Shown one piece after another: positions 7,316 to 52,062 of a stretch of 64,000 nucleotides of DNA. The translations under genes were made by a program, and so were the position numbers. The stretch covers positions 2,924 to 66,923 of the forward strand of contig JALSLV010000008.1 of assembly GCA_026988115.1 (NCBI GenBank), written 5' to 3'. Numbering within the stretch: the first letter of the stretch is position 1; each line of letters starts with the position of its first letter. Source of the DNA: Lysobacterales bacterium (lineage in GTDB: Bacteria; Pseudomonadota; Gammaproteobacteria; Xanthomonadales; Marinicellaceae). The notes below the pieces were generated by a model. It was not told where the DNA came from. It saw only the letters and a program-made list of their open reading frames with translations, and searched no databases.

Positions 7316-8080
7316 CCCAACTTCTTTAATTTTATTTACGTAAGTTCGTGAAACGGGCACTTCTTTGCCATTTTCTAAGACTAAAATCACATTGCGTCCA
7401 TTCTTTTTTACCCGTTCAACTGCATCACGAGCCACCCACCATGAGCGGTGCACTTGCAGCCCATCATAGTCGGCTAATTCCACCAAGGCATCCTTCATGC
7501 GCATCAATAGCATGTGTTCTCCTTTTGCAGTAGTGACGTTGAGGTAATGATCTTCCATAACAAAACAATGCAATTCGTCCCCAAGTTGATGTGGTAAACG
7601 GTCAAGAAAAGTTTTTCCTGCCTTTACTTTGGGCACTTCACTCACTTTTTGGGTATCTTCTGCTTCAATATTTTTGTGAAACTGGGAAGAAATAAAGGTG
7701 ACAATTAAACCCACTAAAAACACTTGAGGGAAAAAGGTTAAAAATTGACCGATGGTACTTCCAGGCATTTTAAAAAATAGTGAAGTAAAGGCTTGTAAAC
7801 ATAGAGTTAGTAATAGAGCTGAGACCAATGAAGGCACGATAAATTTAATCAGTTTGTGGATTTTCTTTTCAGCAAAATACCACTCGGTAAATTTATAAGT
7901 ATGGTAATAGATAAAATAACCCAAAAACAATGAAACAGTCCAATAGACCATTCGGCTCACAAGTGGCATGGAAAAACTACCAAAAGGGCCAAGGTAACCA
8001 ATAACCAATCCCAAAACAGCAATAAAAGACAATGTCAAAAGGCTTGGTAGCTTGATTTGGTAACGTTTTTTTAGGTTCAT
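7307..8080 (-). CDS. membrane-anchored LytTR-domain DNA-binding protein
   Basis: 257 aa with about four N-terminal TM helices. The C-terminus is LytTR-like (LQVHRSWWVARDAV...ENGKEVPVSRTY). Confidence 0.7.
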   Translation of the reverse strand: MNLKKRYQIKLPSLLTLSFIAVLGLVIGYLGPFGSFSMPLVSRMVYWTVSLFLGYFIYYHTYKFTEWYFAEKKIHKLIKFIVPSLVSALLLTLCLQAFTSLFFKMPGSTIGQFLTFFPQVFLVGLIVTFISSQFHKNIEAEDTQKVSEVPKVKAGKTFLDRLPHQLGDELHCFVMEDHYLNVTTAKGEHMLLMRMKDALVELADYDGLQVHRSWWVARDAVERVKKNGRNVILVLENGKEVPVSRTYVNKIKEVGLL

Positions 8081-8225
8081 TTCACGACTCGTGTGTTGCG
8101 TGGCCCAATAAAACTGTGGGTATTGACGAAGTAATCACAACAGTCCACGAAACCAGGCTCGATTTAAAAATTAAAGTTTATACAATTTGTTCTATGAAAT
8201 CAATTAACCTTTTAGGAGAAAAACC

Positions 8226-8657
8226 ATGAAAACAAGAAATTTAATTAAAACAACTATAGCTTTGAGTCTTTTCAGTCTAAATATTCTTGCTGCCAACCTT
8301 AATGTCACGATAGATAAAGTTAATTCAAATGAAGGCAAAATCTTGGCACAGATATTTAAAGGCAAAGAAAATTATAAAAATGGCAAGCCTGAATCCAGTT
8401 TAATAGTGCCTGCAAAAAAAGGTAAAAACAGTTTCTTATTTCAAAATTTATCACAAGGAGAATATGCCGTTCGTTTGTTTCATGATATGAATGACAATAA
8501 TGACTTAGACACCAATGTTTTTGGAATGCCCACAGAGGGTTATGGCTTTTCAAACCAAGCTGTTGGTAATTTTGGACCACCAAAATATAAAGACATGATT
8601 GTTATTATTGGCAAAGATACTAAAGCTGCTGACACTAAAGTTAAAATGATTTATTAA
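8226..8657 (+). CDS. DUF2141-like periplasmic protein
   Basis: 143 aa with a signal peptide. It carries the DMNDNNDLDTNVFGMPTEGYGFSN motif typical of DUF2141. Confidence 0.65.
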   Translation: MKTRNLIKTTIALSLFSLNILAANLNVTIDKVNSNEGKILAQIFKGKENYKNGKPESSLIVPAKKGKNSFLFQNLSQGEYAVRLFHDMNDNNDLDTNVFGMPTEGYGFSNQAVGNFGPPKYKDMIVIIGKDTKAADTKVKMIY

Positions 8658-8668
8658 GGGTGACTACA

Positions 8669-10153
8669 ATGAATCGAAGAGAATTTATCCAGTCTTTAGC
8701 CGTTTTAGGAATTACGGCTTCTCACTTACCAACTGCATTGTTGGCAAGTAATAACAAAACTTGGAAACAGAAATATGAAACTGCATTAAAGTTTGATCCA
8801 CGTCTGATTGGGCATCAAAATTATACACAAGAAAGGCAAGCAAAGTCACTTTTTATCGAAGGTGGGTTTCCAAAAGATTTTAGTGGTACATTTTACCGCA
8901 ATGGCCCAGCTTTGTTAGAAAGAGCAGACGTGCGACAAAAGCACTTGTTTGATGGTGATGGCATGATTCATGCCTTTAAGTTTGAAAACGGCAATGTTTC
9001 ATTTAAGAATAAGTTTGTGCAAACTTACAAATACCAAAAAGAACAAAAAGCTGGGCGATTTCTCTATGATTTATCTGACCTCGGTCTAAAAACCCCTGAA
9101 TCCGTAACCAGTGCAGATACCATCAATAATGCCAACACCAACATATTGCCAGTAGGAGATGAAATCTGGGCATTATGGGAAGCGGGTTCTGCTTATGGCA
9201 TGCATCCAGAGACATTAGAGACAAAAGGTGCTATTACGTTAAATACACAACTCAAAGGCGCCCCCTTTTCAGCTCATCCCAAAATAGATGCCGACGGTAC
9301 TATTTGGAACTTTGGTTTGGATTACTCCTCAGGTCAAATCATTGTTTACAAACTTAATCCAAAAGGTGTAATGCAAAAATTTGGCATAGTTAAAACAGAT
9401 TACCACGCGATGTTACATGATTTTCTTATCACCGATAAACATATTTTACTTGTTCTTCCATCATTAAGAGTCAATCCCAAAGGCAAGGGGTTTGCTGCAC
9501 AACAACAATTTGATGAAAACCGTTCTTTGCGAGTATTAGTAGTCGACAAAAATGATTTTAGTTTAAAAGCGACTCATGAGTTCCCTGCTTGTTTCTTGTT
9601 TCATTTTGGTAATGCATGGGAAGAAAAAGATGGCACAATCCGATTTGATGGTTGTCGATATCCTAATTTAGAAGTCTTAAATCGTATGGAAAACATCATG
9701 CAAGGTGACACCTTTTTGATGAAAGATACCATTAGTCAAACCGTTATTTTTACTATATATCCTGATGGCAAGACCAAGCAAGAGGCCTTTGCAGGTTCAA
9801 CCGAGTTTCCGCGTATTTACCCTGCGTTGACTGGTAAAAGAAATGAAAAAATATTCACCATCGGTGATACAAAAAATGCACAATGGGCTGATTCTATTCG
9901 CTCCATGAGTATTGATACAGGAAAAATTGATCAGTACGTTTATGGTGAAGATTACCTTGTTGAAGAACATGTATTGATAGAAAAGCCCAAGCAAAAAGGT
10001 GGATATTTAATCGGCACCGCATTGAATTGGAAAAAACAACAAAGCTGTGTCTCTCTATTTGATGCCGAAAACATCAAAGCAGGACCATTGGCTCGTGCAT
10101 GGCTTGAATTTCATATTCCTCTGGGTTTTCATGGTAATTTTAAGATGTCTTAA
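8669..10153 (+). CDS. carotenoid/apocarotenoid oxygenase family protein with Tat signal
   Basis: The ORF starts at 8660 (GTG), but I prefer the ATG at 8669. It has the twin-arginine motif NRREFIQSLAVLG. His-containing motifs (HAF, SAHPK, MLHDF, FHFGNAW) are spaced as in carotenoid cleavage dioxygenases. Confidence 0.75.
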   Translation: MNRREFIQSLAVLGITASHLPTALLASNNKTWKQKYETALKFDPRLIGHQNYTQERQAKSLFIEGGFPKDFSGTFYRNGPALLERADVRQKHLFDGDGMIHAFKFENGNVSFKNKFVQTYKYQKEQKAGRFLYDLSDLGLKTPESVTSADTINNANTNILPVGDEIWALWEAGSAYGMHPETLETKGAITLNTQLKGAPFSAHPKIDADGTIWNFGLDYSSGQIIVYKLNPKGVMQKFGIVKTDYHAMLHDFLITDKHILLVLPSLRVNPKGKGFAAQQQFDENRSLRVLVVDKNDFSLKATHEFPACFLFHFGNAWEEKDGTIRFDGCRYPNLEVLNRMENIMQGDTFLMKDTISQTVIFTIYPDGKTKQEAFAGSTEFPRIYPALTGKRNEKIFTIGDTKNAQWADSIRSMSIDTGKIDQYVYGEDYLVEEHVLIEKPKQKGGYLIGTALNWKKQQSCVSLFDAENIKAGPLARAWLEFHIPLGFHGNFKMS

Positions 10154-10398
10154 AGCACTAAACGCAAATCCCAAGCATCAATCCAGTTGACTTGGGGTTT
10201 GAAACAGATCTAAGTTATTAAAAAGCATCAATTTGTATTACTCTATCCCTAGCCTGAACATTTCATACAAGTGGCATAAAACTGGCTCTTCACCGCTTAT
10301 GTGAGTAAAAAAAGGATACGAGTTCAAACTTAACTCGTTGTATTATAAGGTTTCTAACAACTTTATATATTTAACTTTACTCTTTATTAACGTAACGC

Positions 10399-11271
10399 TT
10401 AACGCAAGTCCCATGCATCAATCCAATTGACTTGGGCTTTTTTGAGTTTGAATTCTTTCATCAAGACCTTTTCCATCTCGGGCATATGGGCAGCGCCATA
10501 AAAGATAGCGAAAGTTTTGTTGCCTTTTTCCATTTCACGGCGCAACACTTTAAGTGCTTTTAAGTTTCGAGCACTGACAATAGTTGAGCCTTTATCGCCT
10601 TCCATCGCATCCATTACCACATCCATGGACATAAATTGTTGGGCTGCCACAATTTTCATTTGTTTTTCTCTGTTATCAGAAAAATAAGCAAACAATAAAT
10701 CCATGTCATTCATGGCATCGGGATTGGTGGCTTGTTGTTGCATTCCAACCAACCACATGCGTAAAAACATCGAGAAAAATGACTCGCCTTTTTCATCCAT
10801 GCTCTTCATGAAATCATCGGGTGAAATATCAGCGTGGACAAAGTTTTTGGGCGAATAATCGACCTCATCCAATTGAAAAGTTAAACCCAACATCTCTTTC
10901 ATGCCTGTTTGAATCATGGATAACAAGCCTTTGCCTTCGCTGGCAGCTTTATCACCCACGCGCGTGCCTTCGGGTGCAACCAATTCATAGAGCACCACAT
11001 CATAAGTTTTGAACAGCTTGTTCAGGTTTTCGTAATAGGATTTATCCGCCACATGAACCGCACTGATTAAATCCACATACATATCGGGCGGTATACCATT
11101 TTCAGGCACATAGCGCACATTGGCTAATTGCAAAGCAACAGGTGTTTTGTTTTCTTTCTTGATACGCAAAAAAGTAGTTTTATCCTTTTCATTAACAGGT
11201 GTTTTGCTTGGTTCTTTAGCTACAGAAAATGAAAAAGTGACTAATAAAATAAGAAGAAAAGATGATTTCAT
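10399..11271 (-). CDS. TraB/GumN family-like periplasmic protein
   Basis: 290 aa with a signal peptide. It has the VHVADKSYY...VVLYELV pattern. The family assignment is from memory only. Confidence 0.5.
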   Translation of the reverse strand: MKSSFLLILLVTFSFSVAKEPSKTPVNEKDKTTFLRIKKENKTPVALQLANVRYVPENGIPPDMYVDLISAVHVADKSYYENLNKLFKTYDVVLYELVAPEGTRVGDKAASEGKGLLSMIQTGMKEMLGLTFQLDEVDYSPKNFVHADISPDDFMKSMDEKGESFFSMFLRMWLVGMQQQATNPDAMNDMDLLFAYFSDNREKQMKIVAAQQFMSMDVVMDAMEGDKGSTIVSARNLKALKVLRREMEKGNKTFAIFYGAAHMPEMEKVLMKEFKLKKAQVNWIDAWDLR

Positions 11272-11367
11272 GCAATGAGTTTTTTTAAATAAGTTTATAT
11301 ACTGAGGTCATAAAGTATTTTATCAAGTGCCGTCCTGCCATTTGGGTTATAATTCCTACTAAAGACT

Positions 11368-12339
11368 ATGAGTATATTCATGAACACAACACCAACACTG
11401 CCTAGCGTTATCAAGGCTTCACGTTTCATCTATCAATACATGCAAGCATCGCCTTTGCTGAGTTATCAATTTTTGAGTGATTTGGTTGGGGCAGATGTGT
11501 GGTTGAAGCATGAAAACCATAACCCAACGTGTGCTTTTAAAGTGCGTGGTGGTATTAATTGCTTATCAAAGATGTCCGATGAACACAAAAATGCGGGCGT
11601 TTATACCGCATCAACGGGCAACCACGGACAATCCATCGCTTTTGCAGCACGGGCTTTTGGAGTTAAGGCAACAATTTATGTTCCCAAAGGAGCTAACCAA
11701 GGCAAAGTGGATGCGATGAAATCCTTGGGTGCAAATGTGGTGTCTTTTGGTGATGATTTTGATGTGGCACGTGATGGGGCTTTGCAAGCCAGTATTGATA
11801 ATGGCGGTGTTTTTGTTGGTCCAACTGATGAGGTTTTGATTGAAGGAGTGGCGTCTTATGCTTTGGAGATTATGCAGGACTTACCTGATGTGGATGTTAT
11901 TATTGTGCCGGTTGGTGCAGGCAGTGGCATTTGTGGAACTTCGATTGTCGCCAAAACCATCAATCCCAAGGTAAAAATCATTGGTGTGCAATCAACCCAA
12001 GCACCTTCACAACAATTGAGCTGGAAAAAACATGAATTAATAGAAGCACAAATGCAAACCATTGCCGAAGGCATGGCAACGCGTGTGCCTTTTTCCAACA
12101 CACAAAAAATTATGCACGATTATGTTGATGATTTTTTATTGGTAGATGATGCCGATATTATTAAAGCCACCAAAACCTTAATCGAAACCACACACAATTT
12201 AATCGAAGAAGCTTCCGCAACAACCTTAGCTGCCGCTTTACAGATAAAAAATCAACTTCAAGGTAAGAAAGTTGTGCTGGTGATGACTGGTGGTAATATT
12301 TCGATGCAGAATTTAGCTAATTTATTTGGCTCTATGTGA
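11368..12339 (+). CDS. PLP-dependent threonine/serine dehydratase family protein
   Basis: 323 aa with the PLP-lysine motif AFKVRGG and the glycine loop VPVGAGSG. Its last codons and stop lie inside a terminal inverted repeat (see the repeat feature at 12328). Confidence 0.8.
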   Translation: MSIFMNTTPTLPSVIKASRFIYQYMQASPLLSYQFLSDLVGADVWLKHENHNPTCAFKVRGGINCLSKMSDEHKNAGVYTASTGNHGQSIAFAARAFGVKATIYVPKGANQGKVDAMKSLGANVVSFGDDFDVARDGALQASIDNGGVFVGPTDEVLIEGVASYALEIMQDLPDVDVIIVPVGAGSGICGTSIVAKTINPKVKIIGVQSTQAPSQQLSWKKHELIEAQMQTIAEGMATRVPFSNTQKIMHDYVDDFLLVDDADIIKATKTLIETTHNLIEEASATTLAAALQIKNQLQGKKVVLVMTGGNISMQNLANLFGSM

Positions 12340-12383
12340 AATACAATGGGTAATCAAATTTCAATTTTCCGCATAAAAAGTAA

Positions 12384-12600
12384 CATGGCTGTGCACTTAA
12401 CTCCTGTTTCATACACTGTAAGTTTATTTTCTTTATATAATACAACAGGTTATAAAATATTAAATAAATAACTGTTATTTTGGGTTGTTGACTTTAGTCA
12501 ACGCTCTTAAAAGGTTGGCTAAAGCCAACAACCCTAATGAGTATAAATTATTTGTTCGGTACATTGAAAGTGTGAAACAGGAAAATAGTGCACAGCCATG
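12384..12600. repeat. nested imperfect inverted repeat (MITE-like, about 217 bp)
   Basis: CATGGCTGTGCACT..CCTGTTTCA at the left end matches TGAAACAGG..AGTGCACAGCCATG at the right end. The centre is occupied by the GACTTTAGTC-type hairpin. Confidence 0.55.
12482..12534. repeat. REP-like long hairpin, GACTTTAGTC family, copy 1
   Basis: GGGTTGTTGACTTTAGTCAAC-gctcttaaaag-GTTGGCTAAAGCCAACAACCC. The stem is about 21 bp with one mismatch and one G-T wobble. Confidence 0.7.
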
Positions 12601-23675: not shown

Positions 23676-24539
23676 TCATTTTTCTGCACAAATGAGTATT
23701 TGCTCGCCTCCTAAATAACAATATTTATCTGACCAGAATAATATAATATAGGCATTTTTAAACCCTGCTTTTCTTAAATCTTCTAATAACTCCCACCCAA
23801 AAGTATAAAAGCTGAGACAGCCTTTTTTTGAGAGAGGATCACCGTGGTATTCTGGAGTAGTTAAGTGTTTAATTTCACCTTCACTTATTGTTGCACGAAC
23901 TAGATTGCTTTGGCTGTTCAAATCAAAAGGGACAGAGAAAAGTAACTTTCCATTAGGTTTTAAAACCCTAAAAATTTCTTTTAATGCTTTTTTATAATGT
24001 GGAATGTGTTCAAAACAATCAAACGAAAGAACATAATTAAAAATACCGCTATTAAAGCTCAGCATGGTTAGGTCTTGGTGTTGGATTCTAATTGGAAAGT
24101 ATTTAAATAATAACTTTATTTTATGCATCAAAGTGTCATTTTCAAAATACTCACTGCCAACAACATTGTCTTATTTATTATTCGTCCACTTCGCTAATAA
24201 ACTAACCTGTTCAGTCATGTATATTTTATCTCTTGATTGGGGTTTAAATAAAGTTTCAAAAATATGAATACAACCTCTAACTCTATTGTTCAATTTTGTT
24301 TTGTTGCAGATTAACCTCTCTCTAAGGTTAAGTTCATTGCCATTTGAATAAAGAGTATCTACCAAAAATTTACTGTTAGATTTTGCAGTCCAAGAATAGC
24401 CATCGATATAAAACTGTTTAAGTGTTTTTATTTTTTGATTGAGTTTAAAATCAATACCTTGTAACACTTTTATTTGTTTATTTTTTTTTTGTAAGTGAGA
24501 TTGATACTCTTTAAAATTAGAAATTCTGTTAATATGCAT
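23676..24539 (-). pseudogene. class I SAM-dependent methyltransferase interrupted by a single in-frame TAA
   Basis: ORFs 24171..24539 and 23676..24131 are in the same frame. One TAA at 24173..24171 separates them (..LLAKWTNNK * DNVVGSEYFENDT..). The downstream part has the Methyltransf_11-like FDCFEHIPHYKKALKEIFRVLKPNGKLLFSVPF. Confidence 0.6.
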
Positions 24540-39684: not shown

Positions 39685-41193
39685 ATGAAACAAAAAAACG
39701 AACTTTACGCGGCGGTGGATTTGGGATCCAATTCTTTTCATATGGTGGTGGCTGAGTTTGTTAATCATCAGATGCATGTGATTGATCGGCACAAAGACAT
39801 GGTACGTTTGGCTAACGGACTTGATGATGAAGGGCGATTGTCTGGTGAGAAGATGGATGAAGCGATTTCTTCGCTTGAAAAAATAGGACAGCGCATAGCG
39901 CACATACCCAAATCTCATTTGCGTATTGTTGGTACCAATACATTACGCAAAGCAAAAAATGCTGAGGAGTTTTTGGCGCGGGCATCAAGTGCATTGGGCA
40001 AACCCATTGATATTATTTCTGGGCGTGAAGAAGCGCGAATTTTGTATTTGGGTGTGGCACATTCACTTGCCAGCAATCAGGGCAAACGTTTGGTGATTGA
40101 CATTGGCGGAGGTTCGACTGAGTTGATAATTGGTGAAGAATTTACGCCCCTCTTGCGAGAAAGCTTACACATGGGTTGCGTTAGTTACACAAAAAAGTTT
40201 TTTGCTGACGGCAATATTTCAAAAAGCAATTTCAAAAAAGCCGTTCGTTCGGCGCAACGTCAATTGCTTTCCATTGTTAGTAAATACCAACAGTTGGGCT
40301 GGAACACCGTTATTGGTGCATCAGGAAGTATGCGTTCGACGGCTAAAGTTATTGTGCACAATGAATACGCACGGTATGGCATTGAAAAAGAGGGTTTGGA
40401 TAAACTCATTAAAAAATGTTGTGATTTGGGTACTATTGACAAACTCAAAAATCTGGATGGGCTAAGTTCTCGCCGAAGACCTGTTTTTATCGGTGGATTA
40501 GCCATAATTAAAGCCTTGTTCGATTCACTGGAATTTCAAACCATTCAAGCCTCAAGTGGAGCCTTGCGCGAGGGCATTGTTTATGATTTAAGCGGTCGTT
40601 TGCACCACAATGATATTCGCAGGCGCAGTATTGATAAGCTCGTTAAGCAATTTGAAATTGATATATCGCACAGCAAACGGGTGAAAGCTACCATTGATGA
40701 TTTGATCAACTTAAGCAATATTAAACTCTCTGAATCTCAACACGAATTGCTTAATTGGGCAGCACAATTGCATGAATTGGGTTTAAATATATCTCATTCC
40801 CATTTTGAAAAACACGCAGCTTATATCATTTCTCACGCAGACATGCCTGGTTTTTCTACGCAAGAACAGCTAAAACTATCTGTTATTGTTGCCTCACTCC
40901 GACGTAAAATCAAAAAAGAATGGTTGCAAAAATTGTCGAGTAAACAGCAAGTAAAACTTTTACCATTAATCGTTATATTTCGCGCTGCGACCTTATTAAA
41001 TCGCCCGAGAACTGACGACAATATCCCATTAGAGTCCATCACCTTAGACGATAAAAGCATTGAGATTAAGTTTCAAAACGATTGGCTAAACAATCATCCA
41101 CTTACCTTTGAAGATCTAGAATCTGAGAAGAAGTATCTGAAAAACTTGGGCATTAAGTTAAAACTCTACTCAACTCCATCGCAAGCATCTTGA
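39685..41193 (+). CDS. ppx: exopolyphosphatase / guanosine pentaphosphate phosphohydrolase
   Basis: 502 aa with the ASKHA motifs AAVDLGSNSFHMVV and IDIGGGSTELI. The C-terminal part is HD-like. Confidence 0.9.
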   Translation: MKQKNELYAAVDLGSNSFHMVVAEFVNHQMHVIDRHKDMVRLANGLDDEGRLSGEKMDEAISSLEKIGQRIAHIPKSHLRIVGTNTLRKAKNAEEFLARASSALGKPIDIISGREEARILYLGVAHSLASNQGKRLVIDIGGGSTELIIGEEFTPLLRESLHMGCVSYTKKFFADGNISKSNFKKAVRSAQRQLLSIVSKYQQLGWNTVIGASGSMRSTAKVIVHNEYARYGIEKEGLDKLIKKCCDLGTIDKLKNLDGLSSRRRPVFIGGLAIIKALFDSLEFQTIQASSGALREGIVYDLSGRLHHNDIRRRSIDKLVKQFEIDISHSKRVKATIDDLINLSNIKLSESQHELLNWAAQLHELGLNISHSHFEKHAAYIISHADMPGFSTQEQLKLSVIVASLRRKIKKEWLQKLSSKQQVKLLPLIVIFRAATLLNRPRTDDNIPLESITLDDKSIEIKFQNDWLNNHPLTFEDLESEKKYLKNLGIKLKLYSTPSQAS

Positions 41194-42832: not shown

Positions 42833-44074
42833 ATGAAAACACAATATACGTTATCTGAAGCGGCTAAAATTCTTGGCAAAAATCCTGAAACACTCAGAAG
42901 ATGGGATAATGACAATAAACTTAATGCTATTCGTGAACCTATTAGTAATTATAGGGTTTATAACAAAAAACAGTTAGAAATATTTCCTGAATTTAATGAA
43001 TACATTAAAAACGTCACTGAATCTAATTACGTTAAAGCCGATAGAGATTACTCGGTCATTGAGTTGTTTGCTGGTGCGGGAGGATTAGCCCTAGGAATGG
43101 AGCAAGCAGGCATTAAGTGCGAGGTATTGAATGAAATTGATAAATGGGCATGTCAAACTTTGCGAGAAAATCGACCTGCATGGAATGTACTAGAGGGCGA
43201 TATAAAATCGTGTGATTTTACCGATTACACAAACAAAGTCGATATTGTTACCGGTGGCTTTCCATGCCAAGCCTTTAGTTATGCAGGCAAAAAATTGGGT
43301 TTAAAAGATGCCAGAGGCACATTGTTTTATGAATTTGCTCGTGTGGTAAATGAAGTGAAACCACCGATATGCATTGGTGAAAATGTTCGTGGTTTATTGA
43401 GTCATAAAAAAGGCAAAACATTAGAAGGCATGATTTCAATACTTGATGAAATTGGTTATAACGTCGTTGCTCCGGTTCAAGTGTTAAAGGCCGTTAATTA
43501 TAATGTTCCTCAAAAACGCGAACGTTTAATCCTAGTCGGCATTAGAAAAGACATTGCAACCCAATACAATTATCCAAAGCCCTACGATACTGTTTATAAT
43601 TTGAAAGATGCCTTAAAGAAAGGTGAATTATTTGATTGCGATGTTCCTCAATCAAATGGTTCTACCTACCCTGAGCATAAAGAAAAGGTATTAGAACTCG
43701 TTCCCCCAAAAGGTTATTGGCGAGACTTGCCTTTAGATATTCAGAAAGAGTATATGCAAAAAAGCTTTTATCTAGGCGGTGGTAAAACGGGCATGGCAAG
43801 GCGAATTGGCTGGGATGAGCCTTGTTTAACCTTAACCTGTAGCCCCGCACAAAAACAAACCGAACGCTGTCACCCAGATGAAACCCGTCCTTTTACTGTC
43901 CGAGAATACGCTCGCATCCAAACCTTTCCCGACACATGGAATTTTATAGGTTCAGTCTCGCAACAATACAAGCAAATTGGTAATGCAGTACCAGTAAATT
44001 TGGCGAAGGAGATTGGCTATTCGATCGTTAACTTTTTGAATGACTATTATTTGAGTTTATCAAAGCCCAAATAA
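42833..44074 (+). CDS. DNA (cytosine-5) methyltransferase with N-terminal MerR-type HTH
   Basis: The ORF starts at TTG 42818, but I prefer the ATG at 42833. HTH is YTLSEAAKILGKNPETLRRWD. C5-MTase motifs are I ELFAGAGGL, IV GGFPCQAFS, VI ENVRGL, VIII QKRERL and X GNAVP. Confidence 0.9.
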   Translation: MKTQYTLSEAAKILGKNPETLRRWDNDNKLNAIREPISNYRVYNKKQLEIFPEFNEYIKNVTESNYVKADRDYSVIELFAGAGGLALGMEQAGIKCEVLNEIDKWACQTLRENRPAWNVLEGDIKSCDFTDYTNKVDIVTGGFPCQAFSYAGKKLGLKDARGTLFYEFARVVNEVKPPICIGENVRGLLSHKKGKTLEGMISILDEIGYNVVAPVQVLKAVNYNVPQKRERLILVGIRKDIATQYNYPKPYDTVYNLKDALKKGELFDCDVPQSNGSTYPEHKEKVLELVPPKGYWRDLPLDIQKEYMQKSFYLGGGKTGMARRIGWDEPCLTLTCSPAQKQTERCHPDETRPFTVREYARIQTFPDTWNFIGSVSQQYKQIGNAVPVNLAKEIGYSIVNFLNDYYLSLSKPK

Positions 44075-44646
44075 TAACTGTAATTTTCAAAGTTAATTTC
44101 ATCTAAAAGACTGCGTTGGGATTCATTCGCACTGTTGCTTATTTCTGTCAGTGCTGAATTCTCTGGTTTGTTGGATTTTTCATTAGATTTAAGAAAATCA
44201 TCAATTGCCATTGGTAAGACTTTATACAAATCATACAAGGCACTCTCTTGACCTGTTAGCATTTGATAAAATAAATCTCCAGATATTTTAAACACACGTG
44301 AATGGCTGTATTCTTTACCATTTATAATACCAGCCCAATGTTGTGAAAAACTTTTGGTAGCTAAAATCTGAACCCAATAACATTTGGCTTGTTTATTAGT
44401 GTCTGCATAATGAGCCAATTTTTGAAACAAACTTTCTGCCGAGCTACTGTTCATAGTATTGTGTTTATTTTTAATATCAGCAAACAAACTATCATCTGCT
44501 GCTTTGATATCAAAACCACTTAGATTACCCATTTCATAGCCGTCAATTCCTCCGAGAATTTCTTCATGAAAAGTTCCTATTGAATTGTTGATGGATTTAT
44601 CTATTTGACGGCTTATTTCCGTTTTGATTAATGTTTCTTCATCCAA
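44047..44646 (-). CDS. putative type II restriction endonuclease (PD-(D/E)xK-like), start uncertain or possibly 5'-truncated
   Basis: 199-aa ORF convergent with the MTase, overlapping it by 28 nt. It has the candidate catalytic pattern GFD-x10-ADIK. The only start is TTG. The frame stays open 55 codons further upstream, to 44811, without ATG, GTG or TTG. Confidence 0.5.
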   Translation of the reverse strand: MDEETLIKTEISRQIDKSINNSIGTFHEEILGGIDGYEMGNLSGFDIKAADDSLFADIKNKHNTMNSSSAESLFQKLAHYADTNKQAKCYWVQILATKSFSQHWAGIINGKEYSHSRVFKISGDLFYQMLTGQESALYDLYKVLPMAIDDFLKSNEKSNKPENSALTEISNSANESQRSLLDEINFENYSYYLGFDKLK

Positions 44647-44975
44647 TTTATTAAACTTCGTATCAAAAGTTAGTTTTATGACATCAATCTTATTTTTGTA
44701 GAATTTCTTTTTTGAGATATCAGCTTTGGCTTTTAAATATGAATTGTGAAGGTTTTCTATGCAAGCAAGAAAGTAAGTGACTGTCCGAAATGTAGGATAG
44801 GTATATGTTTGTCATTATTACAATATAAACTTATTAACTGATTTTTCAAGTTTTAAATTAGCTGATAAACACTAAAAATATTTACATCTTACGGTAGGAA
44901 CATGTGATTTCTGTATGTTTTAGACAAGTTAGATGTTAACCTGAAAAGTTAATATGCAATTTAAATTTAAAAACC

Positions 44976-45992
44976 CTATGAACCTTTGATGATATTTTTC
45001 TTTACAAAATCAACTCCTACTCGAATTGGATGTGCAAAACTATGATTAGCAATTCGTTGTGCATAATTTTGTTTAAGTGTAAATAAATAAGTAATTTTAT
45101 TTTTATTGGAATTGTTATCAGAATCCCAATCTAAAAATTCAATTTGTTTATCAATAAAGTTTGTACAAGGTATGTAAAGTTGGATTGGTTTTACATATTC
45201 ACCATTTGTCCAAGATATACATGAATCTGCGTTAATGTATGAAATAAATCCTCCATCTCCTTTTTGTAGACCCTTTTCTAAATTTATTTTAAAACCTTTA
45301 ACAAAGAAATATCTGAAATCAACACTACTTTTGCCATTATGTAAGACACAATCACATAATGCAGTAATACATAAATAATATTTATCATCGCTTCCAACAA
45401 ATATGTCTCCAAAACCAAGTTTAGTTTTTGAGTTTAAATAAGATCCATTATAAAAAATATTCAATTTCGCAATTTCCATGTTACTTATATTGAATCTCTT
45501 TTTAGAAATTTTATTTAAAAAATCATAATCAAGAATTTTTAGCTTTGAATCTTCCAAAGTGATTCTGGCTTGCTCTAACAATATGGACATCATATAAGAA
45601 TTAAATTCTTGGTGTAAATCGTGATCAATTAATTGTTTCCGATGATACATAAGCGTATTTAAATTAGTGTCTAATAAATTTTCGTCAATAAATGATGAGT
45701 AATTTGTAAAATTATTTTGCATATCAAGGCCTAACAATTGTGTAAAATTATTTTCACTTTTGGTAATTTGAGAAATCAGTTTTTTAAGAATTTTTTTAGC
45801 ACTATTTTCTTTTTTAGAAATTATTGTAATAATTGTATTGTTAATGTTTAAAGTGAAATTCTCCCTATTTATATGTGTTGGTATTGGATTAATTTCTTTA
45901 GATTTATGATAGCTTGAAAATGCATACTTAACTTTAATCAATGCAATACCAAAATCAGTTTCATCAGTAATATTTTTTATTATATTAGGCAA
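44976..45992 (-). CDS. unknown 338-aa protein, last gene of the MTase/GHKL/receiver operon (candidate effector)
   Basis: It has a TTG start overlapping the upstream stop by 13 nt and no obvious SD. It is very N/K/I-rich. I recognise no catalytic motif. There is a Cys cluster, CITALCDCV. Confidence 0.55.
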   Translation of the reverse strand: MPNIIKNITDETDFGIALIKVKYAFSSYHKSKEINPIPTHINRENFTLNINNTIITIISKKENSAKKILKKLISQITKSENNFTQLLGLDMQNNFTNYSSFIDENLLDTNLNTLMYHRKQLIDHDLHQEFNSYMMSILLEQARITLEDSKLKILDYDFLNKISKKRFNISNMEIAKLNIFYNGSYLNSKTKLGFGDIFVGSDDKYYLCITALCDCVLHNGKSSVDFRYFFVKGFKINLEKGLQKGDGGFISYINADSCISWTNGEYVKPIQLYIPCTNFIDKQIEFLDWDSDNNSNKNKITYLFTLKQNYAQRIANHSFAHPIRVGVDFVKKNIIKGS

Positions 45993-46546
45993 CTGATTAT
46001 CGATATTTTGAACTCAATATACAAACTTCCGTTTAAGGACGGGTCTACAAATGAAATTTTTTCAAAAAGACTCTTATGATCCTCTTCATAAATATCTAAT
46101 TCATCTTTTACAGCTGTATAGAATAGCTCATTTTTACCAGAAAAGTACGTTGTGATATTGTTGATTATTTCTTCATTATTATTTTGAGATGTGTAAATCG
46201 AACAAAAATGTATATGTTTTTCTTTAATAATTTTTGAAAGCAGTTTTAATGAATAAATCTCTCCTCCATTATCATCAAGCTTCCAATCTAACAAAACCAG
46301 GTCTCTTCTTTTAAAAAGAAAGTCTATACATTTTTCATCATCAATATCAGAAATATTAAATTTATGTATAGCTAAAGAAACTCCTTCTTTTTTAAAATTT
46401 TTATAGAGTTTTTTTGAAAGGTCAATTTCCATACAATTTGACTTAGGCTCTTCTGGTGTATAAAATTCAAATGCTTTTTCATCAATGTATATTGCTGACT
46501 TAATTGATTCTTTAATAATCTCTGTTGCTTTTTGATTTAAGGTCAT
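45980..46546 (-). CDS. receiver (REC)-like domain protein
   Basis: 188 aa with CheY-like landmarks: acidic pair D22-E23 (AIYIDEK), DLVLLD87WKL, CSIYT119S and K138. Confidence 0.6.
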   Translation of the reverse strand: MTLNQKATEIIKESIKSAIYIDEKAFEFYTPEEPKSNCMEIDLSKKLYKNFKKEGVSLAIHKFNISDIDDEKCIDFLFKRRDLVLLDWKLDDNGGEIYSLKLLSKIIKEKHIHFCSIYTSQNNNEEIINNITTYFSGKNELFYTAVKDELDIYEEDHKSLFEKISFVDPSLNGSLYIEFKISIISCLI

Positions 46547-46566
46547 TTAGAATTTTATACTCCATA

Positions 46567-49464
46567 TTATTTTAGTGGTTTAATAACGAAACAGGCTCCA
46601 TTCAGTATATTATAATCTTTATCATTTGTTGCAAAAATATCGAACCCGCTCTCATTAAGACTCTGCTTTGCAAGATATAATCCAATACCTCTTCCATTAG
46701 GTCGATTTGAATAAAATATTTCAAATATTTTATTCAATTTATGTTCTTCTATTTTAAACCCTGAGTTACATATAACAATTTCATCACTTTTGTCATTATA
46801 ATCTAACAGAATATGGCGATCCTTTTTATTTCTCATCCAATAAATAGCATTGTTTATTATATTTATATAAACAGTATGTATAACAGGTTCTTTAATTATC
46901 AATATATGTTTATTGTATGCATGTGTTCCTTCAAGTCTTATATCATAGGACTTTATACGATTTTCAAAAAATTTATTCAAATAACTATATATTGCTAACC
47001 CACTTACTTTTTTAGGTATTACACCAGATATTCTATATAGAGGGGATAATAAGTCATACTTATCTTCTAATTGATTAAAATTTTGCTTTAGAAATTGAAA
47101 TTGAATTTCATTTTTTACATTATTCTCTAAACTTAATTTAGCTATTGAACTATTGATTTTTGCATATAACTGGTTAAATTCATGATCAATTATTTCAACT
47201 GCAATACCTAATTGAGCCGTCTCTCTAGTTTGTTCCCAATTGTATTTTATAGTTTCGTATTCTGCTCTATATGCTCCTTGGATTAGATCCTCATCAATGT
47301 CAAAACTTAATTTATTGAGGTGTTCTATCAGTGGTGAAATTTCCTTATTAATTTGTTCTCTAAGGAATTCAAACTTGAGTGCCAATTTTTCAGAATGAAG
47401 AAGAACATCTTCTTTAGAATAAATCGAACCGATAACACTGTCTTTATCAAAATTCAAATCATCTATAATTCTTCTTGTTCGAAATGAAAAATCTTTAGAA
47501 ATCTTGGCTGATTGATTTTTTAATTGTTCTCTGTTATCAGTTATTAGTTTTTCAAGAGCTCCATTGTATTTTTGATAACTTTTAACAAACTCCATTTTCA
47601 ATTCTTTGATTTCGAGTTTGCCTTTAACTTGAATCATTAATTGTTTACTTTTATTTTTTGTCGTTTCAATGAAACTCATAAGCTTAGTTTCATATTTATC
47701 TAACCGATCTAACTGTGCATCTGTTGGCTTGTATCTCTTTGGGATTTTAGGTATTAAATTTTGAAACTCTATATCTAATGTGTGTAATCGATCTAGTATA
47801 CTTTCAATTTCTGAATAAAGAACACTTTGAAAAGTTGTTTTATCTTCAAGCTTATTAAGTAGTTTTTGGTATTCATTCTTATATTTTTCTAGTTTGATTG
47901 GATACTCTTTTAAGGACCGAGTAAATGCTTTTTTCTCTTCAATCGCTCTCTTATTATCAAGTTTGATAACTTCATGTTGTTGTTTTAGGTTTGCTTTTTT
48001 GTCTAAGAAAATTGATTTGTTAGCTTCAGTTCCAAAATACTCTTGGGCTAGTTCAATAAAAAAAGATTCTAAATCATTTTTAAATTTTCTGTACGCGGAA
48101 TTATTTATTAAACCTTCACGACTTGATTTATCACTTAATTTTTCATTTATTTTTCTGGATAGAGAAATATATCCGAACATTCTTCTGTGTGAAAAGTATG
48201 AACTTGCTCTTAAAGCTCTTCTTTTTTCAAAGCCTAGAAAATCAAAGTCAGTTCTCCCATAAGGCAACACTCTGAAATTATCCCTATAAATATACAGCCC
48301 CCCATTTGCACTAACTTTATCACTAATCCTTTTCCAAGCACTTGATTCAAGTTTAGATTCTTTTTCTCGACCTTGTGAAACACCTACTTTTATCGGAAAA
48401 GATCCATAGTAACTTCGGATGTCTTTTTTTCTAGGGTTTGTATATGTATAATTAATTTCTTCATCATATATTCTTAAAGTACCATTAAAGGAGCCTTTTC
48501 CATCAAATATCCCTTCAATTACAACATCTGCCAGATCAAAGTCATCTGCAGAAAAAAATTGACCATAGGAAGTTAGAAAATCAACTTCTGAGTTAATATC
48601 TTTATATATTGGAATAGCTGTTTTAACAATAATATTATTTTTTATAAACTCATTTGTAAATCCTGAAAGACTAGATGCAATAAATTGCCTATCACTTAAG
48701 CCATCATCATCTTTTTTCGTAATATCTATTATTTGCTCAATAGGCTCAAAAATTATAAACTTCGTTCCATGATTGTTCTCAATGTCTATTAAGTCATCAA
48801 GTAAATTATCCTCCAAAAAACAAGGTAGTTTTGAATTACTAATGGAGGCCTCAATTTCAGACTTTAAACTTTTCTGGTTTTCTTCCCATATTGGTTTACC
48901 ATCGATGTCGTTTTCTTTTTTAAAATTATTTAAGAAGGTTTTTTTTAGAGTTTCAAATTTTTTAGGAAAATCAGATGCACTTTTAATTGATTCTACTGGA
49001 ATATCAACATCATCTAAAAATAAATTATAGTTTTCTAATAACCTCCAATCAAAAAACAAGGCTTCTAATTCGTGCCCCTGCTTTTTTGTGAGCATTAACA
49101 TAGGGTTTCCTAGAAACGCGACTGAAAGTCTTCCAATTCCTTTTTCACCTGACTTTATTCTAGGTTTTTTCCAAAGTGTTTCTTCACTTTCTTTTTCTTC
49201 AAGCTTAGGTCTACTTTTAGAATCTGTTCCAAGTACTAACCATTTTTCAATAATGTCTTTTCTTGACATTCCTTTACCATCATCTGTCATTACAAATAAT
49301 GGAGTATCAACACCTTCATAAGAATCTAAATAAATTTCTGCCGTCAGGTGATCAGCATAAGCATCATAACCATTTTTCCATAATTCCGTGATAGCAGTTG
49401 GCAAATCAGCAATTTGACCTTTGCCAAGTAAATCTACTGCTCTAGCTTTAGTCCTGAATTGCAT
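46567..49464 (-). CDS. 965-aa double-GHKL protein: N-terminal Bergerat ATPase, coiled-coil-like middle, C-terminal histidine-kinase-like DHp plus CA module
   Basis: N-terminal motifs: ELWKNGYDAY (E27, N31, D34), TDDGKGM and GEKGIGRLS. Residues about 485-730 are K/E/L/N-rich. C-terminal motifs: H-box-like IIDH761EFNQL, N-box INIINNAIYW, F-box IFEIFYS and G2 box GRGIGLYLAKQ. Confidence 0.75.
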   Translation of the reverse strand: MQFRTKARAVDLLGKGQIADLPTAITELWKNGYDAYADHLTAEIYLDSYEGVDTPLFVMTDDGKGMSRKDIIEKWLVLGTDSKSRPKLEEKESEETLWKKPRIKSGEKGIGRLSVAFLGNPMLMLTKKQGHELEALFFDWRLLENYNLFLDDVDIPVESIKSASDFPKKFETLKKTFLNNFKKENDIDGKPIWEENQKSLKSEIEASISNSKLPCFLEDNLLDDLIDIENNHGTKFIIFEPIEQIIDITKKDDDGLSDRQFIASSLSGFTNEFIKNNIIVKTAIPIYKDINSEVDFLTSYGQFFSADDFDLADVVIEGIFDGKGSFNGTLRIYDEEINYTYTNPRKKDIRSYYGSFPIKVGVSQGREKESKLESSAWKRISDKVSANGGLYIYRDNFRVLPYGRTDFDFLGFEKRRALRASSYFSHRRMFGYISLSRKINEKLSDKSSREGLINNSAYRKFKNDLESFFIELAQEYFGTEANKSIFLDKKANLKQQHEVIKLDNKRAIEEKKAFTRSLKEYPIKLEKYKNEYQKLLNKLEDKTTFQSVLYSEIESILDRLHTLDIEFQNLIPKIPKRYKPTDAQLDRLDKYETKLMSFIETTKNKSKQLMIQVKGKLEIKELKMEFVKSYQKYNGALEKLITDNREQLKNQSAKISKDFSFRTRRIIDDLNFDKDSVIGSIYSKEDVLLHSEKLALKFEFLREQINKEISPLIEHLNKLSFDIDEDLIQGAYRAEYETIKYNWEQTRETAQLGIAVEIIDHEFNQLYAKINSSIAKLSLENNVKNEIQFQFLKQNFNQLEDKYDLLSPLYRISGVIPKKVSGLAIYSYLNKFFENRIKSYDIRLEGTHAYNKHILIIKEPVIHTVYINIINNAIYWMRNKKDRHILLDYNDKSDEIVICNSGFKIEEHKLNKIFEIFYSNRPNGRGIGLYLAKQSLNESGFDIFATNDKDYNILNGACFVIKPLK

Positions 49465-50539
49465 TGTAGTTTTCTATAATTGCTTGCCCAACTCTTTTTG
49501 CATATTCAGGAGGTACTGCATTACCTATTAATCTAGCAATATCTCCCATGCTTGTTCCTGAGAATCTATAATCCTTTGGGAATGTTTGTAATGTGGCACC
49601 CTCTCTTATTGAAAGCGCTCTGTTTTCTTGTGGGTGAACGAAGCGGCCATTAGATACACTAAAAAATTTCGTTGTAATTGTTGGAGCTGCTTTATCCCAC
49701 CACAGCCTACCAAATGTGTCTTTAAAGGAATTATCTTTACCAATAAAACAGTTTAATTGTAGTTCTGGATCATCTTTAAAACCTGATCTGTCACCACCAT
49801 CCTTTTTAACTTTTTTTAGTCGCCTTAAAGTTAGGTTTGTAATATTTGGAACAGAATGCATGAAATCTGTTTTATCAGAGTAGCCAGCTTTGATTCTTTT
49901 AAATCCATTTACAATACCAATCGTGTCACGAACAGTATATTTCTTAATTGCTTTTATTGGTTCTAATTCTTCTTTAGTTACTCTGTTGGCAATAAGCGTA
50001 AATCTTTTGCGATTTTGTGGCACTCCATAATCTGCTGTATTATGAACATCAAAATGTACTTTGTATTTATTTTTTATTAACCAAGATATAAAAGAAGCCA
50101 AACCACTTTCCCTTTTTTTGCGCAGTACACCTGGTACATTTTCTACGACAACATAGCCGGGGTTAAAGTACCTAACAAATCTTTCAAATTCTTTAAGTAA
50201 ATTTTTAGATTTTTTTGCTTTGGTTTTATCTGTATTTATAATGCTCCAAAATTGACAAGGGCTACAGCCAATTAATAACAATTCATCGTCATTCCTTTGA
50301 ATATCTAATGTTGACTCTAAGTCTTTTGCTTTTAAGTTAAATACATCTGCTTCAATAAACTTAGCTCCTGTTATATTGGCTTCATAAGTTTGTTTGCATT
50401 TTTTTTCGTTATCTATACCTGCTAAAACTTTTATACCTGCTTGTTGCATACCACAACTCATTCCGCCTCCACCACAGAAAAAATCCACTGCTTTAATTTT
50501 TGGTTTGTCGTTTGATTTTTTATTTATATTGTTAATCAT
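49448..50539 (-). CDS. DNA (cytosine-5) methyltransferase (Dcm family), first gene of the operon
   Basis: 363 aa with motifs I DFFCGGGGM, IV GCSPCQFWS, VI ENVPGV, VIII QNRKRF and X GNAVPP. Its 3' end overlaps the next gene's start by 17 nt. Confidence 0.9.
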   Translation of the reverse strand: MINNINKKSNDKPKIKAVDFFCGGGGMSCGMQQAGIKVLAGIDNEKKCKQTYEANITGAKFIEADVFNLKAKDLESTLDIQRNDDELLLIGCSPCQFWSIINTDKTKAKKSKNLLKEFERFVRYFNPGYVVVENVPGVLRKKRESGLASFISWLIKNKYKVHFDVHNTADYGVPQNRKRFTLIANRVTKEELEPIKAIKKYTVRDTIGIVNGFKRIKAGYSDKTDFMHSVPNITNLTLRRLKKVKKDGGDRSGFKDDPELQLNCFIGKDNSFKDTFGRLWWDKAAPTITTKFFSVSNGRFVHPQENRALSIREGATLQTFPKDYRFSGTSMGDIARLIGNAVPPEYAKRVGQAIIENYNAIQD

Positions 50540-50883: not shown

Positions 50884-52062
50884 TTACTGGTTTAGCATTT
50901 GCAATAATTCAAACAGACTGATGACATCAGTTTCCGCATCCAGTGGATATCTGTCATTACCGCCATAGACGACAAAACTTTCATCCGGTTTAATATCATC
51001 TAGTGCGTGATAAAAGCCTTTTGTGACTTTTGGCGCTAGTCCACTTTTGATTTCTATTGCCCAAATTTTGTTGTTTGGGAATTCTAAGATTAAATCTATT
51101 TCAGCTCCTGCTGCGGTTCGGTAAAAGCTTGCTTTTGTTGCTGGTTTTGTAAGGCTTAGAATATTTTCTATAACATAGCCTTCCCAACTTGATCCGTAAA
51201 CTGGGTGACCTGATAATTGGTTGTAATCTGCTATTCCGAGTAAGGCATGAGTAATACCACTGTCGCGGACATATATACGTGGTGATTTAACAAGTCTTTT
51301 TTTGGTGTTTACATAGAGTGGTTGAAACTTTCGCACCAGTAATAAATCAACTAATAAATCGATATAACTACTAATCGTGGGTGCTGATGTTGATAAACTA
51401 CTGGCTAAATTTGAGGCATTGAGTAATTGTCCTTGGTTATGTGCGAGCATTGTCCATAGGCGTTGTAATGTTTCTGCTGGGATACGTGGGCCAAACTGCG
51501 GCACATCTCGTTCTAGATAGGTTCTTATAAAGTTTGTTCGGTAGGCGAAACTGTCTTCATCATTTTTGGCAAGATAACTATCTGGAAATCCACCCCGTAT
51601 CCAAAGATTATGCTCAATTATATCTTGTTGTTTTTTATTGTTATGAATCTCTAATAAATTTAATGGGTTCATGTCTATGTATTCAATACGCCCGGCTAGT
51701 GTTTCTCCTGATTGTTTTAACAAATCTATTGATGCTGATCCAAGTATCAAAAATCGGTTTGTTTTTAAACCGTTTCTTCTGCCTGTATCAATAACGCCTC
51801 TTAGTACCTGAAAGATTTCTGGCATACGGTGTATTTCATCTAAAATAATCAGTTTTTCTTCATTTCTATTAAAGAATAAAACAGGGTCTGTTAGTTTTTC
51901 ACGGTCTTGTATTGCTTCTAAATCCAAATAAATAGCAGGGATGGTTTGTGCGACTTGGTGAGCCAGCGTTGTTTTACCAACTTGGCGTGGACCAATCAAG
52001 GCAACAGCTGCTTGTCTATTGAGTGCTTTATGGACTTTTTTGATGATATTTCGCTTAAACAT
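50884..52062 (-). CDS. AAA+ ATPase with DUF4143-type C-terminal domain
   Basis: 392 aa with Walker A GPRQVGKTT and Walker B LIILDEIH. The overall layout matches the widespread AAA_14/DUF4143 family (from memory). Confidence 0.75.
   Translation of the reverse strand: MFKRNIIKKVHKALNRQAAVALIGPRQVGKTTLAHQVAQTIPAIYLDLEAIQDREKLTDPVLFFNRNEEKLIILDEIHRMPEIFQVLRGVIDTGRRNGLKTNRFLILGSASIDLLKQSGETLAGRIEYIDMNPLNLLEIHNNKKQQDIIEHNLWIRGGFPDSYLAKNDEDSFAYRTNFIRTYLERDVPQFGPRIPAETLQRLWTMLAHNQGQLLNASNLASSLSTSAPTISSYIDLLVDLLLVRKFQPLYVNTKKRLVKSPRIYVRDSGITHALLGIADYNQLSGHPVYGSSWEGYVIENILSLTKPATKASFYRTAAGAEIDLILEFPNNKIWAIEIKSGLAPKVTKGFYHALDDIKPDESFVVYGGNDRYPLDAETDVISLFELLQMLNQ

Follow-up and report, generated by a model that had tools for sequence, protein, structure and literature searches.

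A methylase-linked cassette joins a MORC-type ATPase/histidine kinase to a divergent receiver protein whose gene is interrupted in a Lysobacterales contig

In a 64,000-nucleotide (nt) stretch of contig JALSLV010000008.1 from a Lysobacterales bacterium (the window, to which all coordinates refer), we examined a three-gene cassette encoding a C5 cytosine DNA methyltransferase (Dcm), a 965-residue protein that joins a MORC-type GHKL ATPase to a histidine kinase, and a receiver-plus-output protein, the receiver-effector, whose gene is split into open reading frames (ORFs) of 188 and 338 amino acids (aa) (Table 1). The 3' end of the Dcm gene overlaps the start of the kinase gene by 17 nt, the 188-aa ORF lies 20 nt downstream of the kinase gene, and the 338-aa ORF overlaps the 188-aa ORF by 13 nt. 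The architecture of the kinase and its gene linkage are already known: they are those of the HEF_HK / Response_reg_2 family, which was published in 2021 and is in Pfam. To this family we add that the receiver protein always carries a conserved C-terminal domain of ~330 aa that matches no fold in the PDB or BFVD, that the head and transducer of the kinase match MORC structures, and that the gene triad is nearly invariant in 80 related loci.

Table 1. Coordinates of the cassette, its domains and sites, and other features of the window.
Feature	Position	Strand	Basis
C5 cytosine DNA methyltransferase (Dcm), 363 aa, first cassette gene	49448..50539	(-)	DNA_methylase E 3.4e-55, profile 2-323 of 324; TIGR00675 dcm
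MORC-type GHKL ATPase + histidine kinase, 965 aa, HEF_HK family, group 1 architecture	46567..49464	(-)	
Kinase residues 1-250, N-terminal Bergerat-fold ATPase	48715..49464	(-)	HATPase_c_3 match, conservation, structural match
Kinase residues 251-480, transducer-like second domain of ATPase module	48025..48714	(-)	Conservation, Foldseek alignment span
Kinase residues 481-724, long helical linker/bundle	47293..48024	(-)	AlphaFold2 secondary structure, K/L/E-rich composition
Kinase residues 725-810, dimerisation and phospho-acceptor (DHp) hairpin	47035..47292	(-)	HEF_HK match, H761, fold match
H761 codon, motif H-E-F (H761-E762-F763)	47182..47184	(-)	
Kinase residues 811-965, kinase catalytic (CA) domain	46570..47034	(-)	HATPase_c, PDB sequence matches, invariant residues
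Receiver-plus-output gene (Response_reg_2 family), split in window	44976..46546	(-)	Response_reg_2 match, alignment to intact relatives
188-aa ORF, receiver fragment	45980..46546	(-)	Response_reg_2 (PF19192) E 1.3e-30, 107.4 bits vs cut-off 27
338-aa ORF, output (effector) domain, ~330 aa	44976..45992	(-)	No family match
Frameshift site, A-run …GAGTTCAAAATATCG…	46006..46009	(-)	One base fewer than in intact relatives
Predicted phospho-acceptor D87 codon	46286..46288	(-)	
AAA_14 + DUF4143 ATPase, directly upstream of cassette	50884..52062	(-)	PADLOC candidate PDC-S01, E 6.8e-85
Eco47II-type restriction endonuclease gene, frameshifted	44047..44815	(-)	A-run TTTAAAAGCC near 44735
Eco47II partner methylase, intact, 418 aa	42818..44074	(+)	N-terminal MerR-type helix-turn-helix (HTH) fused to Dcm domain, E 3.7e-86
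S-adenosylmethionine (SAM)-methyltransferase-like reading frame, one in-frame stop (…LLAKWTNNK*DNVVGSEYF…)	23676..24539	(-)	

An initial annotation, made from the sequence alone, had proposed that the kinase holds two different GHKL ATP-binding modules in one polypeptide, the second being a histidine kinase, and Pfam, conservation and Foldseek agree on this. Judged by curated cut-offs, all of which were exceeded, Pfam places HATPase_c_3 at residues 23-145 (E 9e-14, 52.1 bits against 25), HEF_HK (PF19191) at residues 751-813 (E 2.4e-20, 73.2 bits against 24.1) and HATPase_c at residues 861-961 (E 3.3e-10, 40.8 bits against 26.4); this last match leaves the kinase reading of the C-terminal region standing. 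The CA domain also matches the PDB sequences 8dx0, 3a0t, 6paj and 3dge. Many NCBIfam sensor-kinase models match the C-terminal ~100 residues alone, far under their whole-protein cut-offs, as expected because the CA domain is shared. The motifs listed in the initial annotation lie where it had placed them, both in the head (E27/N31/D34 in ELWKNGYDAY, T60-M66 in TDDGKGM and G106-S114 in GEKGIGRLS) and in the kinase core (H761 in AVEIIDHEFNQL, N868/N872 in INIINNAIYW, N900-S-G902 of the G1 box in ICNSGFKI, F914 in IFEIFYS and G924/G926/G928 in GRGIGLYLAKQ). Its description of the G1 box as degenerate needs qualifying: the box departs from the DxGPG of most of the family, its Asp being Asn in the clade of the window kinase, but the same N-S-G is found in the crystallised kinases 3a0t and 8dx0. 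Over 19-residue spans, Kyte-Doolittle hydropathy peaks at 1.02, in line with the annotated lack of transmembrane helices.

A word-indexed search returned 1,637 relatives of the kinase, the best 120 of which are all 965-975 aa long and 67-79% identical to it. An exhaustive search of representatives of 50%-identity clusters matched 4,691 clusters at E <= 1e-3, of which 485 passed the stricter limit of E <= 1e-30; the matches are almost all full length, and plasmids of Pseudoalteromonas, Pantoea and Rhizobium carry full-length relatives with 28-30% identity. We aligned 81 diverse representatives (25-51% identity) and found the head residues of motifs I (E27, N31, D34), II (D61, G63, G65) and III (G106, K108, G109, G111) invariant in 81 of 81; G233 and T234 of motif IV are conserved in at least 90%, and R8, L13, G14 and Q17 of the N-terminal strap are invariant or conserved in at least 90%. 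The second domain (251-480) has invariant R398, G403, D408, E413, R416, G431, K446, R449, E450 and G451. Invariant residues of the kinase core are N868, N872, G902, F914, G924, G926, G928 and H761, the histidine that the initial annotation had singled out and whose conservation its reading required. Because the catalytic residues are invariant, both ATP-binding folds look catalytically competent. The helical linker is the least conserved part of the protein, with a mean pairwise identity of 37%.

Two partial relatives turned up beside these. phrog_8137, a PHROGs family with no assigned function, matches kinase residues 391-961 (window 46582..48294; E 3.3e-73), which implies that a relative without the N-terminal head is present in some records of phages or prophages. 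Conversely, 41 Campylobacter plasmids (C. jejuni and C. coli; 51-75 kb; matches H9-H25) encode a protein that matches residues 1 to ~470 at ~30% identity; it corresponds to the head and transducer alone, yet is annotated as a "sensor histidine kinase".

An AlphaFold2 monomer model of the kinase, built from the 81-sequence alignment, has a mean predicted local distance difference test score (pLDDT) of 89.4 and a predicted template modelling score (pTM) of 0.73. It lays out an alpha/beta head (1 to ~250), a mixed alpha/beta second domain (~250-480), a helical linker and an alpha/beta CA domain (818-963). The linker forms five long helices (485-543, 550-570, 582-614, 619-678 and 684-718; pLDDT mostly 87-95), which bears out the K/E/L-rich helical stretch annotated at residues ~485-730 (composition of 485-730: K 15%, L 13%, E 10%). 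After the linker, a two-helix hairpin (725-775, carrying H761, and 783-804) has the form expected of a DHp in a monomer model. Searched with Foldseek against the PDB, the first ~500 residues match, in each case over ~500 aligned columns, MORC2 with DNA (9cdj, E 2e-10, 510 columns), MORC3 (6o1e, E 1.1e-9; 5ix1), MORC4 (7k7t, E 1.9e-9, template modelling (TM) score to target 0.58) and SMCHD1 (6mw7, E 1e-9), with Hsp90 lower in the list. The last ~245 residues match the whole DHp+CA cores of YF1 (4gcz, E 5.6e-10) and HK853 (4jav, E 6.6e-9; 3dge, 2c2a) and the WalK/YycG cores (4zki, 5c93). Because the Foldseek alignments span ~500 columns, residues 251-480 form part of the MORC-like match, and in the model residues ~250-480 are a conserved mixed alpha/beta domain of the N-terminal ATPase module and not coiled coil. 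Its tentative assignment as an S5-fold transducer, which would complete the ATPase site with a conserved lysine, draws on the ~500-column alignments to MORC2, MORC3 and MORC4 and on the invariance of K446.

We collected related loci by scanning one genome per species, which gave 146 confirmed loci, 80 of which were kept. Most are from Bacteroidota; the others come from Sulfurimonas, Spirochaetales, Pyrinomonadaceae, Desulfatiglandales, Aminicenantes, Omnitrophota and one bin labelled Halobacteria. By tblastn with the window proteins, 77 of the 80 have Dcm as the next gene upstream, in the same orientation, and all 80 have a receiver domain directly downstream; the order Dcm, kinase, receiver-effector is found in 77. 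Spacing is tight, typically with a Dcm/kinase overlap of 7-13 nt and a kinase/receiver gap that is usually < 50 nt. The same triad occurs on a Pseudoalteromonas megaplasmid and, together with Vsr, in a metagenome relative of 30% identity. Sequence identities of the kinase and the receiver-effector co-diverge (Spearman 0.75-0.85), with lower values for Dcm (0.45-0.67).

For the genes flanking these loci, we clustered the ORFs and scanned the cluster representatives. Vsr is present in 27 related loci. In 15 of 79, the receiver gene is followed immediately, within 34 nt and in the same orientation, by a small nuclease-type gene; it encodes HNH_2 in 5 loci (L008, L010, L012, L055, L084), NOV_C/DUF3883 in 8 (L016, L022, L036, L039, L060, L068, L069, L081) and HNH+DUF3427 in 2 (L035, L057). 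Also downstream are McrB-like AAA_5 genes (8 loci) and DUF2357/PDDEXK_7 genes (7 loci). Seven loci have a second Dcm, and about 10 have small HTH genes upstream. NOV_C is the domain that is fused to a GHKL ATPase in the plant protein NO VEIN, and the GHKL/NOV_C pairing recurs in trans in the related loci.

In the window, the partner gene of the kinase is broken. The initial annotation had taken the "188-aa protein" as the phosphotransfer partner, but this ORF proved to be the N-terminal fragment of a frameshifted gene of ~523 aa. Adding one A to the A-run restores a single 523-aa frame, and across the frameshift point the homologue sequence reads …FYKIDNNLPQLIK…. Tenacibaculum maritimum (LT634361.1; intact cassette at 6947..12453 of locus L001), Aquimarina sp. 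AD1 (CP031966.1) and Pricia antarctica each have one uninterrupted ORF of 515-517 aa behind the kinase gene; residues 1-178 of the 517-aa Tenacibaculum protein align with the 188-aa ORF (58% identity) and residues 185-516 with the 338-aa ORF (61% identity). Of the 80 related loci, 76 encode the receiver-effector as one ORF; a contig end truncates it in 3, and it is interrupted in 1 and frameshifted in none. The partner is normally one gene of 514-583 aa with a receiver domain and the conserved output domain.

The one-base lesion is probably real, because the 2.9-kb kinase gene, with 80 A/T runs of at least 4 bases, is intact. We also considered that the split is no defect of the locus, either because it is a sequencing or assembly error or because the 188- and 338-aa products work as separate receiver and effector proteins. 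This would fit a break of a single base within an A-run and a similar lesion in the Eco47II gene 1.2 kb away, and the sole other copy of the exact window sequence (L004, an ENA contig), being 100% identical over 14.9 kb, is not independent; we rejected it as confirmation of the frameshift. We nevertheless regard this possibility as doubtful. Like the kinase gene, the housekeeping genes look intact; the k141_ name of L004 suggests a MEGAHIT short-read assembly, in which we would not expect an error between four and five A; the 76 complete relatives include no split gene; and the 338-aa ORF would need a TTG start within the upstream ORF. Programmed frameshifting at the A-run was judged unlikely on inspection of the sequence, in which there is no canonical slippery heptamer. 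With a one-base deletion breaking its receiver-effector gene, the window cassette has most likely decayed to a copy in which the methylase and the kinase alone are kept.

The receiver domain itself is divergent. Its pocket (D22, E/D23, D87 and T/S119) is kept in 72 of 72 aligned receivers, and the Pfam model Response_reg (PF00072) finds a weak match in just 2 of 94 receiver-effector family members. An AlphaFold2 model of the 516-aa homologue P0122 (pLDDT 89.4, pTM 0.78) begins with a receiver-like alpha/beta domain (1 to ~135), followed by helices and a small three-stranded sheet (223-243); then come a helical region (249-366) and a C-terminal domain rich in beta structure (380-490) with a final helix. 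A helical part of ~180 residues falls within the output domain. The receiver part matches known receivers weakly in Foldseek (E 0.035-0.6, TM score to target ~0.45-0.5).

The output domain contains ~18 invariant or near-invariant polar residues, which in the numbering of the repaired protein are T238, K245, N363, Y366, N367, D381, C393, T395, C398, D399, C400, S436, W446, K453, Q497, R498, N501 and R509. We could rule out that this putative active site is lost where a separate nuclease gene is present, as the residues are kept either way; their retention with or without such a gene suggests that the output domain is an enzyme. Its fold matched nothing we searched. The window ORFs have no output-domain match in Pfam, NCBIfam, PADLOC or PHROGs, nor do the 94 family members in Pfam; a profile search found no PDB sequence match; and with the P0122 model no Foldseek match at E < 1e-3 was found in the PDB or BFVD, where the receiver part alone was matched, weakly. 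Comparison by hhalign gave probabilities < 1% against Vsr, HNH_2, NOV_C and PDDEXK_7 profiles and was also negative against the McrB-like, second-Dcm and HNH+DUF3427 profiles of neighbouring genes, and tblastn against phage genomes was negative.

Two further features of the receiver-effector deserve mention. Its C-terminal tail (P-x-R-V-G-x-D-F-x-K; P0122 508-516, ~509-516 in the repaired window protein) is among its best-conserved segments, and the last nine residues of P0122 are the sole part of the model with pLDDT < 50; the tail may thus be a peptide on which a further subunit or another protein docks. Substitutions in the output domain also occur in pairs, D381W with C398S in two loci (L023, L030) and C393N with N367S in three (L075, L076, L082), which hints that D381 and C398, and likewise C393 and N367, may be close in space.

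The cassette sits in an island (~44000..50000) with a GC content of 27-32%, against 36-41% elsewhere in the window, with a Ppx-GppA gene (39685..41193) on one side and, on the other, the ATP synthase operon (from 52371). This island holds two methylase-based systems and the AAA_14/DUF4143 ATPase that matches PDC-S01. In the second, of Eco47II type, the listed 199-aa nuclease ORF covers just positions 52-201 of the RE_Eco47II profile; removing one A from its A-run gives a 255-aa protein that covers positions 1-201 of 202 (E 1.8e-76). The partner methylase gene and the nuclease gene converge, with a 28-nt overlap at their 3' ends. The in-frame stop in the SAM-methyltransferase-like reading frame shows that disrupted genes are not confined to the restriction-modification (R-M) island, and it weakens an argument we had considered, that inactivation hits nuclease-type genes alone. 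A promoter and terminator scan found nothing beyond chance, with a tool that lacks Bacteroidota-type promoters.

We read the locus as an R-M-linked three-gene cassette of Dcm, MORC-type ATPase/histidine kinase and receiver-effector, in which the clamp would signal by His-Asp phosphotransfer and which would act as a defence or selfish module; we put the probability of this reading at roughly 55%. The evidence we count for it is the domain calls, the invariant residues, the fold matches, the gene order, the co-divergence, the defence-island setting, the Vsr and nuclease genes of related loci, the published family with its methylase linkage and paraMORC ancestry (PMC8011034), the tie of paraMORCs to R-M (PMC2292703) and the nuclease-controlling GHKL head of VcSduA (PMC12137116). 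GHKL ATPases dimerise through their heads in an ATP-dependent manner with exchange of the N-terminal strap, and histidine kinases are DHp dimers in which a helical input controls autophosphorylation. The kinase would accordingly resemble both: a soluble dimer held by its DHp bundle, whose two MORC-like heads would close, driven by ATP and probably on DNA. The Dcm mark would probably tell self from foreign DNA, which is the natural reading because the Dcm and kinase genes are so strictly linked. Head closure could change the DHp conformation through the helical linker and so turn H761 autophosphorylation on or off; the phosphoryl group would then pass from H761 to D87 of the receiver protein, and phosphorylated D87 would activate the C-terminal enzyme-like domain as the restriction or toxic output. 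In the window itself, at most the methylase and the kinase would still work.

Several observations weigh against this reading. DNA as the trigger of the head is proposed purely by analogy with MORCs, and a counterpart of the canonical receiver lysine (CheY K109) is not conserved in the expected region of the receiver alignment. "Restriction" is not demonstrated, since the output domain has no recognisable nuclease or catalytic fold; a type II R-M system calls for a recognisable restriction-nuclease fold, and Pfam, NCBIfam, PADLOC, PHROGs, the PDB and BFVD gave none for this domain. Once kinase similarity is controlled, the output domain and the target-recognition region of Dcm show no co-variation (partial rho -0.10 to +0.06), so there is no sign that the output domain and the methylase recognise one and the same DNA sequence. 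A separate nuclease gene is part of the operon in about 19% of loci, and given these genes the receiver protein could be a regulator and not an effector. The cassette is also not a catalogued defence system, because no PADLOC 2.0 model gave a relevant match to the kinase or to either receiver fragment. Lastly, we found no experimental work on the HEF_HK / Response_reg_2 family in the literature searched, in which the two papers that cite the 2021 description are general two-component surveys. A narrower version of our reading, phosphorelay-gated restriction, in which the MORC clamp would read whether DNA bears the cassette's own 5-methylcytosine mark and report this by His-Asp transfer to an enzyme of new fold that destroys the invader or the cell, is in our view less likely than not.

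We also weighed two other functions. If the cassette is instead a regulatory two-component system, its kinase would sense the state of nucleotides or of methylation inside the cell, with the receiver regulating the transcription or activity of the linked methylase or downstream nuclease, essentially as speculated in the discussion of the paper that defined the family (PMC8011034). The nuclease genes (HNH_2, NOV_C or HNH+DUF3427) directly downstream of the receiver in 15 of 79 loci, the small HTH gene upstream in about 10 and the ~180-residue helical part of the output domain would all suit such a role, but about 64 of the 79 loci have no extra nuclease to regulate, Pfam and the fold search detected no HTH or known response-regulator output domain, and ~18 invariant polar residues that are independent of a fourth gene look more like an active site than a DNA-binding surface. 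We consider this explanation unlikely. The cassette might, on the other hand, be an addiction module that stabilises its island by post-segregational killing, the MORC-like head sensing that Dcm methylation is lost once the cassette is gone, and the phosphorelay triggering a toxic output. Tight translational coupling of Dcm and kinase and a wide horizontal spread, across phyla and onto plasmids, speak for this, as does the state of the window, where the effector gene and the adjacent Eco47II nuclease gene are inactivated and both methylases survive; selfish R-M units usually decay in this way, losing the nuclease or effector and retaining the methylase. The in-frame stop in an unrelated window gene means, however, that these inactivations may not be selective. 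Nothing at hand separates addiction from defence, and the two roles are not exclusive; as an explanation in its own right, we think addiction quite improbable.

It is a matter of debate in eukaryotes how the MORC family turns dimerisation on DNA, driven by ATP, into a downstream signal. Here a MORC-type head is wired directly to a histidine kinase, and the clamp state should therefore be readable as phosphorylation. If phosphorelay-gated restriction is true, nature would have provided in the kinase a biochemical read-out for the state of the MORC clamp, and in the ~330-aa output domain a new class of effector. With 485 clusters at 50% identity (E <= 1e-30), the family is widespread; it reaches many phyla and plasmids, and is strictly coupled to a cytosine methylase. 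It is thus no discovery, though well suited to experiments, and the window copy, with its broken output gene, is a poor choice of representative. What remains of interest is the absence of experiments in the literature searched and an output domain that matches nothing in Pfam, the PDB or BFVD.

The closest known system is the published family itself. It was Bellieny-Rabelo, Pretorius & Moleleki (2021, Genome Biol Evol; PMC8011034) who defined HEF_HK (PF19191) and Response_reg_2 (PF19192); they found HATPase_c_3 + HEF_HK + HATPase_c to be the predominant "group 1" (174 of 222 sequences) of soluble proteins, a kinase-like/receiver-like gene linkage of 91.6%, and a C5 methylase usually upstream. 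They derived the family from the paraMORC ATPases of Iyer et al. 2008 (PMC8011034; PMC2292703) and proposed that the N-terminal HATPase_c_3 stands in place of a sensor (PMC8011034); we likewise infer that the N-terminal module is the sensor input of the kinase. The initial annotation was right that this arrangement is unusual for two-component kinases, but it is not undescribed, being group 1 of the HEF_HK family (PMC8011034). Sharing the architecture, the Response_reg_2 gene next door, the C5 methylase upstream and the lack of a transmembrane segment, the window cassette is a member that shows no family-level difference, apart from the frameshifted receiver gene of this copy.

With MORCs and paraMORCs (Iyer, Abhiman & Aravind 2008, PMC2292703; MORC2/3/4, SMCHD1), the kinase shares the GHKL fold, the Bergerat motifs, a transducer-like domain and the ~500-residue fold match. 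Prokaryotic paraMORCs show an association with R-M systems (PMC2292703), and the window kinase is likewise linked to a DNA methylase. MORCs and paraMORCs are paired with helicases or nucleases or carry chromatin-reader domains, and unlike the window kinase none has a DHp+CA core; in the text of PMC2292703, "histidine kinase" occurs just in the expansion of GHKL, and "receiver" is absent. Class I (HisKA-type) kinases such as HK853, WalK/YycG and YF1/FixL have in common with it the DHp hairpin (H then E), the N, G1, F and G2 boxes and the whole-core fold match. Their sensor is a PAS, HAMP, GAF or periplasmic domain, whereas the window kinase has a second, ATP-consuming GHKL module; its DHp belongs to a separate Pfam family, HEF_HK, and its partner is a divergent Response_reg_2 receiver without a clearly conserved lysine.

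Two anti-phage systems resemble the cassette in logic. Detocs, attributed to Rousset et al. 2023, reportedly uses a histidine kinase, a receiver and an enzyme effector in phage defence, and is said to differ in its sensor, to include a buffer receiver protein, to use a nucleosidase as effector and not to be methylase-linked. No relationship to Detocs was detected by sequence (there was no PADLOC match, though the presence of Detocs models in PADLOC 2.0 was not checked), and its resemblance to the window cassette is functional only. In VcSduA (Shedu type I-D / paraMORC3), control of a nuclease by a GHKL head has been shown experimentally, and the ATPase mutant E27A abolishes defence (PMC12137116). 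The proposal that a GHKL head gates nuclease output in anti-phage defence is a logic like that proposed for the window cassette; VcSduA differs in placing head and PD-(D/E)xK nuclease on one chain, with no phosphorelay and no methylase.

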